Shown piece by piece: positions 30,076 through 36,060 of a stretch of 64,000 bases of DNA (within the stretch, counting starts at the first letter, position 1; the number at the start of each line of letters is the position of its first letter). The translations under genes and the position numbers were made by a program. Origin of the DNA: Planktothrix sp. (lineage in GTDB: Bacteria > Cyanobacteriota > Cyanobacteriia > Cyanobacteriales > Microcoleaceae); assembly GCA_044238405.1 (NCBI GenBank), contig JBIIDK010000001.1, forward strand, positions 6,114-70,113. The letters are read 5' to 3'. The notes under the pieces are model-generated. The model saw only the letters and a list, made by a program, of their open reading frames with translations. It was not told where the DNA came from and searched no databases.

Positions 30076-30714
30076 TTGCACTCATCACTTATGATCTCAA
30101 ATCTTAAAAAATTAGTATTGACAAGTTGGGAGTTGCAAACAGACTTAGAGTTTATTATCCAGTGGATATTAGTGACAGTCGTGGGATTTTTAGTCAGTTT
30201 AATCTGGATAGAAATTGGGGAAAGACCGGATTTAGGAGGACTCGAAGGTGCAATTGGCGGCTTGATGATCAGTTTCGCTCAATGGTGGGTTCTCAAACAT
30301 CATATTTCCCACAGTTGGCGCTGGATTTTTGTTCATATTTTAATCTGGACTATCATCGGGTTAACTCCGATTGGACTTTTAGGTTGGATTGTTCCTCGGA
30401 CATTACACCTGACCCCTCGAATTGTTTATGGCGTCATCGAGGGAGTGAAGTTAGGACTTTGTTTAAGCTTGGGCCAGTGGTGGGTCTTACGCACCGAAGT
30501 CTTCCAAGCATGGCGATGGATCATCGCCAGTGGACTTTCATGGGGGATAGCATTACCCATCGGTTGGATGTTTGGGGGAATTCTGCGTCAAGGAACCAGT
30601 TTTTTTCTCGGAGATGTTTTAGGTTTAGTCTTGGTTTGGACAATCGTTGCAGGGATGACCGGAACAGCGCTGACTCGATTATTATGGTATCCCATTAAAC
30701 AGAATGATGGGTAG
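30076..30714 (+). CDS. Multi-pass membrane protein of unknown function
   Basis: Several hydrophobic helices with an internally repeated QWWVL motif. Confidence 0.7.
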   Translation: MHSSLMISNLKKLVLTSWELQTDLEFIIQWILVTVVGFLVSLIWIEIGERPDLGGLEGAIGGLMISFAQWWVLKHHISHSWRWIFVHILIWTIIGLTPIGLLGWIVPRTLHLTPRIVYGVIEGVKLGLCLSLGQWWVLRTEVFQAWRWIIASGLSWGIALPIGWMFGGILRQGTSFFLGDVLGLVLVWTIVAGMTGTALTRLLWYPIKQNDG

Positions 30715-31219
30715 GAACCATCAGTTCTGTACGAATATCCACTTCCGTTGTTTCTTCGTTGTGCTCAGGAAAGAAGGGTTCAGGGGAAGAACCCGGTAAA
30801 GATACAACTTCCTCAGCACACATCGGTTCTAGTTGATGCTGCTGTTGACGGGATGGGTGATATTCGTCAATTCCTCCAGTTAAAATTAATTCTGTTGGAT
30901 CAGGCTGAATATTTAACAGAATTTTCGGGCCAGAGATGGCTAAATGAATCACTTGTCCATCGACTAAAGGAACTTGCTCAACCGCTTGGCCATTGACATA
31001 GGTTCCATTCGTTCCCAGATTGGTCACAATCCAATCTTCACAGTCGCGGCGAATCTCGACATGATAGCGAGAAACCACCGCACTATAGAGAACCACATCG
31101 TTCTTAAGGGATCGTCCAATCCGAATCACATCGTCCTTTTTAAAGACCCAACTGCGGACAGGAATCGATTGGAGAGGATGCAATAATGTTAGTTTAATCA
31201 CATTGGCAAAATCTAACAA
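30695..31219 (-). CDS. FHA domain protein
   Basis: IRIGRSLKND, VVSRYH, LGTNGTYVNG. Confidence 0.9.
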   Translation of the reverse strand: MLDFANVIKLTLLHPLQSIPVRSWVFKKDDVIRIGRSLKNDVVLYSAVVSRYHVEIRRDCEDWIVTNLGTNGTYVNGQAVEQVPLVDGQVIHLAISGPKILLNIQPDPTELILTGGIDEYHPSRQQQHQLEPMCAEEVVSLPGSSPEPFFPEHNEETTEVDIRTELMVPTHHSV

Positions 31220-31461: not shown

Positions 31462-32202
31462 CTAAGACAATTGAAAAATAAACGAAACTAAATCTCCTTT
31501 ACCTAAAGCAATGCGATCGCCGGGTCTTAACCGATGTCGATTTCCTTTAGCTAGAGAGATATTATTAATATAAGTTCCATTGGAACTGCCCACATCTTCA
31601 ATATAGTACGCATCCCCTTCAATGCGAATATCCGCATGGGTACGAGAAACAATTTCTGAGTTGGGAAATCCCGAAACATCAACATCCGGGGGAACTAAAT
31701 CATTAGGTTTTCCCAGATGAATCACCGAGACATTGTGAGGTAATTCTAGGGTTGTATTGGTTTGAACATGAATCAACTTTGCAGTCTGCTGTTGTAATTG
31801 GGTTGCAGCACCTTGAAAACTTTGAACCCCCTGAGCTAGAGGTTCTGCAACCGGAATCACAGGAACAACAACAGAAGGAGATTTTTCTAAATTCGGTGCT
31901 GAACTGACCGCAGGCTCTGGCAACGGTTCAACAACAGAGGCACTTGGGGGGGAAACCAAAGTGGGAATTACCCCTTGATTTTCGCCGGGATTGGTTTCTG
32001 CCGATGCGGGTTGTAAATTTGACCCACATTGACCACAGAATGCCGCATCTGTTTGTATCGTCGCTCCACAATGGGGACACTGGGTCATGGCAGGCAACGG
32101 CGTATAACAAGCTTCACATTGGGTCGCACCGTCTGGATTTTGATGATTACAATTGGGGCAAACAATCATAAGATTCTGATGGACTAATTTTAATGAGATC
32201 AA
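31462..32202 (-). CDS. Double zinc ribbon + FHA domain protein (FraH-like)
   Basis: Four CxxC pairs at the N-terminus; VSRTHA, GSSNGTYIN FHA motifs. Confidence 0.85.
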   Translation of the reverse strand: MISLKLVHQNLMIVCPNCNHQNPDGATQCEACYTPLPAMTQCPHCGATIQTDAAFCGQCGSNLQPASAETNPGENQGVIPTLVSPPSASVVEPLPEPAVSSAPNLEKSPSVVVPVIPVAEPLAQGVQSFQGAATQLQQQTAKLIHVQTNTTLELPHNVSVIHLGKPNDLVPPDVDVSGFPNSEIVSRTHADIRIEGDAYYIEDVGSSNGTYINNISLAKGNRHRLRPGDRIALGKGDLVSFIFQLS

Positions 32203-32230: not shown

Positions 32231-32950
32231 TTAAGTTAAATTGGCTCCTGCTTCGGAATCTAATAACCACCATAATTCCCCAACGGGTTGAATCAGTCGG
32301 CTGGGATAAATCATCCCATCTCCTTGAGATGCAAACACTTGGGCTAAAGGTTGCTGTTTATTGGCTCCTGTGACTAAAAACATCACACAACGAGCCTGGT
32401 TAATCAAGGGAACCGTAAAGGTAATTCGAGGTTGACCGTCTTTGTTTCCAACCGTAATTAAGCGATCTGCAACGGTTAAGGCTTCGGTTTGCGGAAATAA
32501 CGATGCCGTGTGAGCATCATCTCCCATCCCTAATAAAACCAGATCAAAAGCGGGGAATTCTCCGGGGTTGAGATCAAAAAATTGCTCTAATTCCCGATTG
32601 TATTGTTCAGCATCCGATGAGGGGTCATTGGCTGCCGTTGGCATTGGGTGAATATGAGTTGGGGGAAAATTCACTCGATCCAGCCAAGCTTGTCGCGCCA
32701 TGCGTTGGTTACTGTCGGGATGATCACCGGGTACATAACGTTCATCGCCCCAAAAGACATGAATTTGATTCCAAGGTAACGGTTGTGCAGCTAATGCTTC
32801 ATACAACGGTTTGGGGGTGCTCCCTCCGGCTAAAGCGATTGTAAATTGATCCCGACTTTGAAGCGCATCTTGAATTTTAGCGAGAATAATATCTAAAGCT
32901 CGCTTCGTAAGTTCCTCTTTATTTGCTAAAATTTCTATAAATTTTTTCAT
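32231..32950 (-). CDS. pgl: 6-phosphogluconolactonase
   Basis: LAGGSTP, FWGDERYVP..SN, LLGMGDDAHTASLFP, RITFT. Confidence 0.97.
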   Translation of the reverse strand: MKKFIEILANKEELTKRALDIILAKIQDALQSRDQFTIALAGGSTPKPLYEALAAQPLPWNQIHVFWGDERYVPGDHPDSNQRMARQAWLDRVNFPPTHIHPMPTAANDPSSDAEQYNRELEQFFDLNPGEFPAFDLVLLGMGDDAHTASLFPQTEALTVADRLITVGNKDGQPRITFTVPLINQARCVMFLVTGANKQQPLAQVFASQGDGMIYPSRLIQPVGELWWLLDSEAGANLT

Positions 32951-33022
32951 CTTTCTTCCCCTTTGGAGACTCCCGCTAAATCGGTACTCCGATTAGCGGA
33001 GAGAGGAAAAAGGGGTTGGGTT

Positions 33023-34300
33023 TTATGTGGCATACAAGTAACCATCCTTTTTGTGAATTGTTGTACAGTATTTGTAGCTGATGCCTTGAATAATTGCTTC
33101 TTTCAGGGTGATATTAAAACTCCCACTTGAACGAACAGCAATTCGTCCTATATGTGTTCCAATTTTCTTACCTTTGGTAACAACAGCTTTAACTATATCG
33201 CCCGTTTGAAACCCTTTGACAAATTTAAAACGAGGAACATAACAAGAGGGAAAACCCAATTTATCTGTTCGGCACATTTGTCGGGAACCATGACCTGTTG
33301 CTTTGATTAATAAAGGTTTATTGGTTAAAACCTTTAAAGTTTCAACTTTCCCAACGCAAGCTGCATCTAACCAATGGGTTTTAGACAAGTTTAATTGAGT
33401 CCGATTGAATTTAGTTAAACCACCGGAACCTGTTTCAACAGGTAAACCCGTTTCTTTTAACCGATTAAACAGTAACCATCGAGTTGAATTAACTACTGTA
33501 GCATCTTTTAAGGGTTGTTTAGCTTGTCTCAAAATCCTTAGCAGTAAGTCAGATTTACTCGATAGAAAATCTTGAATATCTTGATTTCCTTTCTTTTGGT
33601 TACAGTCATGACAAGCAACAGTAAGATTTGAAATTCGGTCAGTTCCGCCTTGGGATTTGGGGTGAATATGTTCTACTTCTAAGGGTACGTTTTCAATTCC
33701 ACAGTAAGCACATTTTCTACCCCATTTTTCCAATAAGTATTGCCGAACCTCGTATCCTTGTAACTCTCCTTGTTGATACTGAATTCCACTGATTTCAGGA
33801 TTTTCAAGTTGCTGTAAGTCAAATCTCACTAACTCTTGAACAATTGAACCAATCGGTGCAAATTTAATTAATTTGTTGACCCAGGTTAGAGTTGTTTCTA
33901 CTCGATGTTGAAGACTGGGTGTTAACCCACCTTCTTGTCTTTTTCGGTTTAAGAATCGAGGTTGACGATATCTAGTTTTACGATTTCTTCGGGAGCGACG
34001 CAATGAACGTCGAGATTCCAAAGACATTTTAATTGTTTGACCTCGATGAGTTAATTCCGCACCCCAAATTACTTTGTTTCCCTGAACTAATGCCATTCCC
34101 GTAGTTTTTGAACCGGGGTCAATTTTAAGAGTGATTTGTTCTATTTCTGATTCGGGTTTTGACTCCTTCAAGATAATAGTAAACGGATAACGGCGATAAA
34201 CAGCAGCTTGACCTTGATTCAATAACAATCGAGCTTGAGCAGGATGTACTGGGTTTTGAGGCTGTTTATTCGGATCAATTACAAAAACGTAATTAGACAT
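33023..34300 (-). CDS. iscB: RNA-guided endonuclease IscB (RRXRR/PLMP, split RuvC, HNH)
   Basis: PQNPVHPAQAR (PLMP-like), IDPGSKTTG RuvC-I, Arg-rich bridge helix, QELVRFD RuvC-II, CAYCG..EHIHP..NL...C..CN HNH, HWLDAAC RuvC-III; catalytic residues appear intact. Confidence 0.95.
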   Translation of the reverse strand: MSNYVFVIDPNKQPQNPVHPAQARLLLNQGQAAVYRRYPFTIILKESKPESEIEQITLKIDPGSKTTGMALVQGNKVIWGAELTHRGQTIKMSLESRRSLRRSRRNRKTRYRQPRFLNRKRQEGGLTPSLQHRVETTLTWVNKLIKFAPIGSIVQELVRFDLQQLENPEISGIQYQQGELQGYEVRQYLLEKWGRKCAYCGIENVPLEVEHIHPKSQGGTDRISNLTVACHDCNQKKGNQDIQDFLSSKSDLLLRILRQAKQPLKDATVVNSTRWLLFNRLKETGLPVETGSGGLTKFNRTQLNLSKTHWLDAACVGKVETLKVLTNKPLLIKATGHGSRQMCRTDKLGFPSCYVPRFKFVKGFQTGDIVKAVVTKGKKIGTHIGRIAVRSSGSFNITLKEAIIQGISYKYCTTIHKKDGYLYAT

Positions 34301-34557
34301 AAGTTGACTCCTATTTCTAGGGTAATGTTAGCTTCGACAATGTTAGTGGTCGGTACTTTCTCGTTTTGCACTTCCTTAACCCGCTAAAGATGTTTAACAA
34401 CTGAGTTTTAGAGCTTGGGACTAGCTACGCATCCCAAGGTAAGAACTTTAACGCTTTTCCACTAACGTAGTGCTTAAGAAGCACTTAGTCTGGTCAACTT
34501 GGGCTGTATTTCAAGCCCCCACTGTAGTTGTACTCAAGTCAGTGGTGGGTTGTTGAC
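34301..34557 (-). ncRNA. omegaRNA scaffold of IscB; guide derived from flank ~34558-34577
   Basis: Minus strand reads GTCAACAACCC...GTTGACCAGACTAAG...CTACGTT...ACATTGTCGAAGCTAACATTACC..AGGAG-ATG, the typical omegaRNA/HEARO motif order. Confidence 0.88.
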
Positions 34558-34833
34558 TTAGGTAGCCTCAGAGATTAATTTAGGCATGAAAGCAACAGGC
34601 TACAATAATAATAAAAGGTTTTGTCCGCGATTCGGTTGGGGTTTACCACCGAGCACTAAAGTTAAAGATTGACCGTTGAGGGAATTAGGCAATTGTGCTT
34701 GGAGCCATGAGCCAGACGTTAATTTCTTTTCTCCTTTTCTGTTGTCCCCATTTCCCCCACTTTTTTGCTTTCTTTGCCTTGCAACTGTCGCGCTCCTGTT
34801 CCTTTCAATACAGCAACAAGCTGTCTATAAGTT

Positions 34834-36060
34834 ATGTCTATTCATAAACGACTTCCTGAAACCATCGGTGCTGTTGGTGAAGCGTTTCAGTTTCTCCTAC
34901 AACCTCGCATTTGGGGTTCCCTTAGCGTTCTGGCGGTAGTGGGAATGTTTTTTTGGCAGTTTTCTGAACATCCTGACTGGTTTAGTTTGGATGCAGAATC
35001 AATTCCCAAGCTGGGTAACGCCTTGAATCAACTGACCCCAGAAGAACAATCCATTGCTGCCGATATTGATAGTTCTCAACTGTTATTGGATGAGTTAAAT
35101 CGAAATAATTCTGGTGTTGTACCTTTAAACACAAGTATATCCTTGGGGCAAGACTTACTTAAACAAGCACAAGAATCAGCTAAAAAATCTGAATCTTCCT
35201 CTAATTCAAACCCAATCTTAGACAGTATACTTTCAGGTTCATCTCCCAAAACACAACCCTCAGTACAGCAGAATACATCTACTCTTTCTAACAATCTAAA
35301 TTCCATTTCTGATCCGGCTCAAACGTCCACCCAGCCTAATCCTAACTTGGGTTTAAATCAGCCAACCTCACCCTCAGCAAAAACCCAAACCCCCCAAACG
35401 GCAACCTCCGCCTTACAACAAGCCATGCAGAACTATCTGCAAACCCAAGCAACCGTAAACCCAGATCTAGCGTTACCTTCTAACGCAACTCCCGAATCCA
35501 CTGCAAGCTCTGAAAACCCATCATCAACTTTCTCAACTTTATCTCCGAATCATCTCACAAATCCTAACGCAGCATTAAATCCCCCTTCAGGAAAAACCGT
35601 TGGTCTCACACCCTTTACAGGAACTCCCACGATTACAGGGCAAACCTTCGCACCGACTTGGAGTGTTCCCAGAAACAATCCGAATTCTGCGGTGGGTACA
35701 GTTCCTCTTCCGGTTCAAAACCCCTATCAAACCAACGTTACCCTACCTCCTGCGGTTCCCACAGTCCCAACGGTAACGCCCGGAAACCCAAACTATTCTA
35801 ATCTCAATGCTTATCCTTATACCGGACAACCAGCCTATCCTAATAATTATATTGCACCCTCCTATTCTGTTACTCCAAATCCTGGAAGTTATAGCACCGT
35901 TCAACCAATTCAACCGAATAGCTATATGACTCCTAGTAATATGAATCCTAATTTACAACCGGGTCAAATCGGTCAAACCCAACCTAATTTTTCTATTCCT
36001 AATCAGGTTCCGGGTCGTTATATTGGCGGAGGGGAAATTAATACATTTGCCAATCCTTAG
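34834..36060 (+). CDS. Membrane-anchored Pro/Ser/Asn-rich hypothetical protein
   Basis: Single TM near the N-terminus, long low-complexity region, conserved-looking end PGRYIGGGEINTFANP. Confidence 0.75.
   Translation: MSIHKRLPETIGAVGEAFQFLLQPRIWGSLSVLAVVGMFFWQFSEHPDWFSLDAESIPKLGNALNQLTPEEQSIAADIDSSQLLLDELNRNNSGVVPLNTSISLGQDLLKQAQESAKKSESSSNSNPILDSILSGSSPKTQPSVQQNTSTLSNNLNSISDPAQTSTQPNPNLGLNQPTSPSAKTQTPQTATSALQQAMQNYLQTQATVNPDLALPSNATPESTASSENPSSTFSTLSPNHLTNPNAALNPPSGKTVGLTPFTGTPTITGQTFAPTWSVPRNNPNSAVGTVPLPVQNPYQTNVTLPPAVPTVPTVTPGNPNYSNLNAYPYTGQPAYPNNYIAPSYSVTPNPGSYSTVQPIQPNSYMTPSNMNPNLQPGQIGQTQPNFSIPNQVPGRYIGGGEINTFANP

Follow-up and report, generated by a model that had tools for sequence, protein, structure and literature searches.

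An IscB transposon between the ribosome-binding site and start codon of Planktothrix pgl, and a start-codon niche among its relatives

Introduction

How does a gene tolerate a 1.6-kb transposon lodged exactly between its ribosome-binding site (RBS) and its start codon, and what would such a position offer the transposon? Both questions are raised by pgl, encoding 6-phosphogluconolactonase, in a 64,000-nucleotide stretch of Planktothrix sp. DNA (contig JBIIDK010000001.1; the whole stretch is called the window below and coordinates are positions in it), where an insertion sequence (IS) of the IscB/omegaRNA type lies directly before the pgl ATG. A first-pass annotation made from the letters had proposed that the element targets start codons, brings a replacement RBS and cuts pgl alleles that lack it. 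Our analysis confirms the observation and partly supports the interpretation. The explanation that we consider probable, taken as a whole, is that an ISC transposon has inserted at the N↓ATGA of pgl (the arrow marks the insertion point), is driven by the pgl promoter and is one case of a family-wide start-codon niche: about half of the related elements lie exactly at start codons and most of the others in the leaders of co-oriented genes.

IscB is the ancestor of Cas9 and is in development as a compact genome editor. Kapitonov et al. (2016; PMC4810608) described an N↓ATGA target for ISC elements of cyanobacteria and proteobacteria. For GstIscB a TTCAT target-adjacent motif (TAM) has been shown experimentally and cutting is highly sensitive to changes in it; the same study found that IscB guides are encoded outside the element and must be transcribed from outside, that IscB elements are co-oriented with upstream genes, and that GstIscB cleaves the joint which TnpA excision leaves in the donor, a cut that leads to recovery of the element from a sister copy (Meers, 2023; bioRxiv 10.1101/2023.03.14.532601). 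Prior work thus covers ATGA as target and TTCAT as TAM, along with the orientation bias and the dependence on a guide and promoter outside the element.

Results

Structure and boundaries of the element

The element occupies 34557..32951 on the minus strand (1607 bp), the strand that also carries iscB, pgl and the FHA-domain genes beyond it. Its junctions read ...TCTGAGGCTACCTAA↓GTCAAC... on the left and ...CCAAAGGGGAAGAAAG↓ATGAAAAAA on the right. The omegaRNA scaffold (Rfam HEARO, RF02033) was matched at 34557..34322 with 139.2 bits (gathering score 83) over the full model (1-211), the first base of the match being both the start of GTCAAC and the 5' boundary of the element (the right end, RE, in TnpA terms). 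Next comes iscB (34300..33023, 425 aa), whose product has Pfam matches to RRXRR (5.4e-74, residues 5-178) and HNH (2.3e-13, residues 197-240) and contains PLMP/RuvC, bridge helix, HNH and RuvC-III motifs. Aligned to the solved TbaIscB, HfmIscB and OgeuIscB (E 1e-44 to 1e-26) it retains intact RuvC-I, HNH and RuvC-III motifs, with the catalytic IDPGSK, EVEHIHP...N and THWLDAA all found. The last 72 nt, from the iscB stop to pgl (32951..33022; the left end, LE, in TnpA terms), form a three-part hairpin. No second open reading frame (ORF) is present and the element is thus non-autonomous. Its architecture of omegaRNA scaffold, iscB and structured end places it among the non-autonomous ISC-type transposons of the IS200/IS605 superfamily, and each structural feature of an ISC/IscB element that could be looked for was found.

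Both boundaries are fixed to the base by a second copy, by empty alleles and by skip joints. The identical IscB protein is encoded on public contigs, mostly at the pgl site and once at a different site (L088), where the copy reads ...gatgagatgat↓GTCAAC...GAAGAAAG↓ATGATTTAG and defines the element as the same 1607 bp. Empty pgl loci (14 from the same species and six from other species) read ...GAGGCTACCTAA↓ATGG... with nothing between, element-free contigs encoding close Pgl variants read ...TCTGAGGCTACCTAA↓ATGGAAAAATTT, and a joint from 32950 to 34558 in RNA and DNA contigs skips exactly 1607 bases. Insertion was therefore immediately 5' of ATGA, with neither target duplication nor terminal inverted repeats, and it left the coding sequence of pgl (32231..32950, minus strand; 239 aa, intact, Pfam Glucosamine_iso from residue 10) untouched. 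The native Shine–Dalgarno (SD) sequence GAGG, now at 34569..34566, is separated from the ATG by 8 nt in each of the empty alleles. On these structural points the first-pass annotation was right throughout: the type of element, the omegaRNA start at GTCAAC, the quoted junctions, the precise insertion between GAGG and ATG and the GAGG-8 nt-ATG arrangement left when the element is removed all agree with the HEARO and Pfam matches, the second copy, the 20 empty alleles and the skip joints. Neither the element nor its ends occurred a second time in the 64-kb window, no near-identical DNA was found in plasmids, and when metagenome contigs were scanned for the exact pattern of the element end, the pgl copy alone came up.

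Target site and empty pgl alleles

The element abuts ATGA(A) at 32946..32950 (minus strand), that is the pgl start codon and the first two bases of codon 2, which would serve as both target and TAM. Directly 5' of the HEARO start lies the predicted 16-nt omegaRNA guide CTCTGAGGCTACCTAA (34558..34573, minus strand; the length is assumed from the family), which consists of the last 16 nt of the native pgl 5' untranslated region (5'UTR) and includes the native GAGG. The pgl leader would in this way supply the guide, as had been proposed.

Each empty allele of the same species has these 16 nt in front of its ATG. At position 32947, however, all 10 occupied loci have ATGA (Met-Lys) and all 20 empty loci ATGG (Met-Glu). 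The first-pass annotation had predicted an empty allele ending in ATGAAA and had itself taken any other reading as refuting; the alleles actually read GAGGCTACCTAA-ATGGAA (20/20), so that this prediction, taken literally, fails. Because the outgroups have G, the A at 32947 is the derived state, and a G-to-A change in codon 2 (Glu2Lys) appears to have created the target in this population. The Pgl protein encoded in the window is otherwise identical to that of one empty allele (P0127). As the extant empty alleles read ATGG they lack the TAM and should be refractory to both insertion and IscB cutting. In a homing-type drive the empty alleles carry the recognition site; here the guide matches but the TAM position is ATGG in 20/20.

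The insertion was found in many samples from 2021-2025, and each of two haplotype backgrounds includes occupied as well as empty alleles. Between the closest occupied and empty haplotypes there are only 3-4 differences in 2.5-3.9 kb, always with -327 and +4 among them. This pattern fits one G-to-A change, one insertion and later recombination, and nothing in the haplotype data speaks for repeated homing. Independent gain on more than one occasion, or loss accompanied by a TAM-escape mutation, was considered and rejected, as occupied alleles on both backgrounds share -327 and +4; with these shared markers and ATGG in the outgroups, a single origin followed by recombination is the simpler account. 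The strain in run X25 has an element at the L088-type site and an empty pgl with ATGG. It should be noted that the base at 32947 in the joints from RNA runs was deduced by matching lists of single-nucleotide polymorphisms to L104, which gave ATGG in X25, and was not directly readable in X27, X34 and X38.

A start-codon niche among related elements

Eighty related loci were fetched, with IscB 66-78% identical and mostly from filamentous cyanobacteria; the window's own genome is not among them. Their omegaRNAs were found with the Rfam HEARO model (blastn with the omegaRNA missed most relatives). HEARO was in the same place, directly upstream of iscB on the same strand, in all but three of the 79 relatives scanned (L070 was left out), and the three without a match (L012, L058 and L066) each have iscB near the contig start. 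Similarity between copies at different, non-orthologous sites ends at ...↓ATGA or ...↓ATGAA, and ATGA was present at 61 of 63 unique related sites, in agreement with the published N↓ATGA target, the TTCAT TAM of GstIscB and the ATGA(A) target that the first-pass annotation had assumed. The fifth base is A in 60% of sites, start codon or not.

For each unique site the empty site was rebuilt by joining the flanks, and it was scored as start-like when the ORF opened by the junction ATG was 90 codons or longer and was preceded by an in-frame stop no more than 25 codons upstream. By this measure 33 of 62 scorable unique sites (53%) were start-like compared with 115 of 2268 other ATGA sites (5.1%) in the same flanks (Fisher p = 8e-25). 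When only non-disruptive sites were counted, at which insertion would break no long ORF, the figures were 32/50 (64%) and 115/640 (18%), with p = 1e-11 and an odds ratio of 8. Some sites scored as internal are true N-termini too (SurE, an ABC ATPase and an aldo-keto reductase), and in comparisons of junction ORFs with Pfam the first domain began at profile positions 1-6 in 10 of the 10 tested, SucD, FtsZ, HolA, HisC, SurE and Amt among them. The host genes with an element at the start codon include ftsZ, holA, sucD and parB. Non-start sites were upstream of a co-oriented ORF in 16 of 23 cases, ten of them 33-271 nt from it. An independent set of plasmids gave the same picture, an annotated co-oriented coding sequence starting exactly at the junction ATG in 8 of 16 IscB copies from several phyla (start-codon copies include Pseudomonas, Polaromonas, Cupriavidus, Trichormus and Deinococcus). 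The arrangement parA-iscB-parB occurs in plasmids of both Trichormus variabilis (L121) and Deinococcus sp. (L122), the element end abutting the annotated parB start; as the IscB proteins and the ParB N-termini both differ between the two, these events look independent. The start-codon bias of other copies, which the first-pass annotation had proposed to check, is thus real and strong, and extends beyond cyanobacteria.

Several individual relatives deserve separate mention. The elements in L118 (a Chroococcidiopsis plasmid) and L080 abut ATGG instead of ATGA, the ATG at the L118 junction being the annotated start codon; either the target is not strictly fixed at its fourth base or that base changed after insertion, which would lock the element in place. 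At one sucD start codon an element is present in five Microcoleus genomes (L007/L036, L049/L051 and L054), but the left flanks, and with them the guides, are of three kinds; the leaders may have diverged after one insertion or the site may have been hit more than once. Elements of different end subfamilies are found at the start codon of homologous small membrane proteins in Microcoleus (L012, ~1434) and Scytonema (L055, ~4357); the proteins begin MKTIPLLGISFLVAI... and MKTFANLLISIVVAL..., so that one gene family was hit twice. Second HEARO/omegaRNA copies lie a few hundred to a few thousand bases from the first in L002 (2042-2258, minus strand, opposite to the first copy) and L048 (6046-6260, plus strand), indicating that IscB elements cluster locally in some genomes.

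Transcription across the element

No terminator-like site was found on the minus strand of the element and no U-tract follows the end hairpin. Metatranscriptome contigs cross the iscB-pgl junction in runs X27, X28, X31, X32 and X37, one X28 contig crosses the junction between 5' flank and omegaRNA, and a 3.2-kb X32 contig runs from iscB through pgl and then 2.4 kb beyond. From iscB the RNA contigs continue into pgl and the FHA-domain genes (32202..31462 and 31219..30695, on the same minus strand as pgl) at similar depth. Co-transcription of leader, omegaRNA, iscB, pgl and FHA genes is supported by these contigs, though not proven, and the first-pass view of a terminator-less element that is read through agrees with them. 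In run X27 the contig depth is ~1069 in the omegaRNA bin compared with ~47 over iscB; such very uneven depth argues for RNA over DNA carry-over and suggests that a stable processed omegaRNA is formed. The minus-strand unit is covered by RNA contigs up to about 34589, and contigs of the divergent gene start at 34614-34626. A TATTAT/TATTGT sequence at 34610-34602, which in alignment is conserved in the empty loci of other species, is a candidate -10 region for the pgl promoter (34595..34610, minus strand), with a plausible transcription start near 34595.

Other omegaRNA-like sequences were seen in the same data. One X19 RNA contig has 121 nt of the omegaRNA (34361..34483) replaced by 119 other letters, and several runs contain contigs that match only 34402..34456 and then diverge, from which it appears that related omegaRNAs of other IscB subfamilies are expressed in the same communities.

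The hairpin and SD-like run at the element end

The 72-nt end of the element is predicted to fold, as RNA, with -30.6 kcal/mol (z = -3.6). In the outer stem CCCCTTT (33015..33009) is paired with AAAGGGG (32964..32958), the inner stem is formed by CCGCTAAATCGG/CCGATTTAGCGG, and a 7-nt tail, AAGAAAG, follows. Among the 21 members of the subfamily, 9 of 19 hairpin pairs show compensatory changes, and in all 21 the 5' arm of the stem, CCCC(C)TT, begins 8 nt after the iscB stop. As a subterminal hairpin the structure has the expected form of a putative site for the Y1 transposase. The 3' arm of its outer stem reads AAAGGGG in the window copy and AAGGGGG in most members. This SD-like purine run, which in the window copy lies 7 nt upstream of the pgl start, is a candidate replacement RBS. 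Predicted pairing with the 3' end of 16S rRNA is -8.0 kcal/mol for the element end compared with -5.6 for the native leader, and over the 63 sites strong predicted anti-SD pairing was found for 71% of element ends, 11% of random 18-mers and 15% of the displaced native leaders. In at least six end sequences that are unrelated to one another, GAGG or GGAG stands 4-8 nt ahead of the ATG, and the remaining ends are U-rich. In two betaproteobacterial plasmid copies, L126 (Polaromonas pPNAP01) and L129 (Cupriavidus pRK1-2), iscB as annotated is ~36 codons longer than its homologues at the C-terminus. The extra codons run through the transposon end to a TGA that combines the last two bases of the element with the A of the host ATG (...AACTG↓ATGA), so that the ORF overlaps that start codon; this may reflect translational coupling or, the DNA being GC-rich, chance.

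At least eight runs contain RNA contigs whose match is limited to the last 24 nt of the element plus ATGAAA (32945..32974), with unrelated sequence on either side; one of these contigs has a depth of 2917 in X19. Terminus and target are therefore shared by an element of another type, perhaps a TnpB (IS605B) partner or a short non-coding derivative, whose expression appears to be high.

Neighbouring sequences

The divergent gene at 34834..36060 (plus strand) encodes a protein of 408 aa that is rich in Pro, Asn, Ser, Thr and Gln, has one N-terminal hydrophobic stretch and no Pfam match, and keeps its position beside pgl in related species. Upstream of the empty pgl of Planktothrix pseudagardhii (L093, 2141-2420) lies a long intergenic array of GGGGACAAGG / GGGGATTAGG-type repeats, which are absent from the window's species.

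Discussion

According to the explanation that we favour, the pgl promoter would supply the outside transcription needed by the IscB guide and, with no terminator in the element, a single transcript would carry guide, omegaRNA, iscB, pgl and the FHA genes. Translation of pgl would restart at its own ATG, helped by the last 20 nt of the element with the SD-like run in its hairpin, and ribosomes finishing iscB might open that hairpin, whose 5' arm is so close to the stop, and so couple the two translations. ATGA would be the common target of TnpA and IscB, and insertions at N↓ATG, being both harmless and transcribed, would be retained. Such biased retention is more likely than recognition of start codons as the source of the niche, which the first-pass annotation had described as start-codon ‘targeting’; the coupling to the pentose phosphate pathway that it drew from the same insertion is incidental, as relatives precede unrelated genes.

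Several points weigh against this explanation. The RNA evidence consists of assembled contigs from metatranscriptomes that are unstranded or of unknown strand, where DNA carry-over is possible, and run X32 shows no contig from leader to omegaRNA. A strict sigma-70 consensus scan calls no promoter upstream of the element. RNA-guided, TAM-dependent cleavage by the window IscB is a prediction from its intact motifs and the GstIscB data. At the element end the SD-like run is base-paired as part of a covarying, stable stem, which could serve TnpA on DNA rather than translation, and the purine run may accordingly be conserved for a DNA hairpin that TnpA needs. The native leaders mostly have no SD (15% have one) and an SD may not be needed at all. 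Start-codon residence was found for 13 of 18 U-rich ends without SD and 27 of 45 ends of the SD type, and on these figures an SD-like end as a requirement for such residence was rejected. The replacement RBS of the first-pass annotation therefore stands as an SD-like AAAGGGG at the right place, while its function as an RBS is only inferred.

Could the element be a neutral passenger that landed by chance at a start-codon ATGA and breaks nothing, its end being an arm of a DNA hairpin for TnpA and the start-codon excess a product of purifying selection against insertions within genes? The covarying stem around the SD-like run, the equal frequency of SD-less subfamilies at start codons and the scarcity of SD sequences in native leaders can all be read in this way, as can the single insertion origin followed by recombination with no sign of repeated gain at pgl. 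We nevertheless think it unlikely, as the excess persists among non-disruptive ATGA sites (64% compared with 18%), the copies away from start codons are mostly in leaders of co-oriented genes, which fits a need for upstream transcription and not mere harmlessness, and unrelated ends have repeatedly placed GAGG or GGAG at SD distance from the ATG; the two proteobacterial copies in which stop and start overlap across the junction point the same way.

Another view, that IscB with its pgl-leader guide is now cutting and converting empty pgl alleles on other chromosome copies or incoming DNA, was that of the first-pass annotation. The motifs of iscB are intact, omegaRNA is abundant in the RNA data, cutting of donor joints and element-free sister chromosomes has been shown for the family, and no empty ATGA allele was seen, as a completed drive in a susceptible class of alleles would leave. 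Such a drive is nonetheless quite improbable: none of the known empty alleles carries the TAM, to changes in which IscB cutting is so sensitive, pgl is still empty, with ATGG, in the strain whose element is at another site, and the markers at -327 and +4 shared by the occupied haplotypes fit a single origin with ordinary recombination, the tight association of A and element following from 4-bp linkage alone. We give least credence of all to a harmful polar insertion that separates pgl from its promoter and RBS and leaves it silent or decaying in occupied strains. The insertion has indeed moved the native SD 1607 bp away, a hairpin of -30 kcal/mol sequesters the new SD-like run, and pgl may be dispensable. 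Against this, pgl is intact and its product differs from an empty-allele protein by Glu2Lys only, the insertion occurs on both haplotype backgrounds and in many samples over 2021-2025, RNA contigs run on from iscB through pgl into the FHA genes at similar depth, and relatives of the element precede essential genes such as ftsZ and holA.

A stronger version of the retention model is that a widespread clade of IscB elements is specialised for start codons, combining a shared TAM, a host promoter and an end that permits translation to restart, at low cost before essential genes. Here ATGA(A) would coincide with a trinucleotide that the host cannot mutate without losing the gene; the restart module would be an SD hidden in a stem after the iscB stop, a U-rich leader or a TG↓ATG overlap; residence before ftsZ, holA or parB would cost little; and the sole escape for the host would be the base after the ATG, exactly where the empty pgl alleles differ (ATGG). 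We put this forward tentatively, the balance being somewhat against it.

By inserting at a start codon an element would take over the leader of a host gene, which suggests a source for the outside transcription that IscB guides require, and the intact coding sequence, transcriptional read-through and translational restart suggest how the host tolerates it. For annotators, 1.6-kb ‘intergenic’ inserts directly before essential genes may belong to the transcription unit. Natural near-isogenic occupied and empty strains, with differences at 3-4 bases, exist at pgl. The locus is an ordinary member of the known ISC/IscB family and the family-wide start-codon niche is the new part. No description of start-codon residence, or of ribosome-binding or coupling ends, of ISC/IscB elements was found in the literature searched, the 2009 HEARO paper lying outside that search; that paper may mention ATGA/GTGA beside HEARO elements.

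The closest known elements are the ISC transposons with an N↓ATGA target (ISC1-1_MA of Microcystis, ISC2-1_HM and ISC2-1_MS; PMC4810608), which are likewise non-autonomous, have iscB as their only gene, a 5'-GT... terminus and subterminal hairpins, insert 5' of ATGA without target duplication and occur in cyanobacteria and proteobacteria. They share an end with a partner element, as the window copy shares its 24-nt terminus with a second element type in the RNA data. Start codons and ribosome binding are mentioned nowhere in that account (Kapitonov et al., 2016), whereas here the target ATG is a gene start at about half of the sites and the ends are SD-like or U-rich. The IscB of ISGst5 from Geobacillus stearothermophilus, with its ‘peel-and-paste plus cut-and-copy’ life cycle (Meers, 2023), has the TAM TTCAT, which is ATGAA on the iscB strand, a guide encoded outside the element at its omegaRNA end, a need for outside transcription and co-orientation with the upstream gene; it cuts the donor joint and the element is restored from the sister copy, an activity that the window IscB may share. 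An orientation bias was reported in that study but not a start-codon niche, and in contrast to that system the extant empty alleles at pgl lack the TAM.

In its placement the element resembles an operon with a stop-start overlap (ATGA/TGATG) or with coupling by unmasking of an SD: between the iscB stop and the stem masking the SD-like run there are 8 nt, and in the Polaromonas and Cupriavidus copies the iscB ORF ends at TG↓A over the host ATG. Compared with established coupling systems, coupling here is only suggested by the arrangement, and the stem may be a DNA-level site for the transposase. A broader likeness is to homing endonuclease genes in self-splicing introns or inteins and to IStrons, in which a selfish nuclease limits its cost to the host and occupies a target that is hard to change. 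There is no splicing here, harm being avoided by the position before the ATG, by read-through and by restart of translation, and recognition would be RNA-guided with a TAM, so that the comparison is one of logic and not of membership; within that logic, three of the four target bases at pgl are the start codon and the fourth is the one at which all empty alleles differ.

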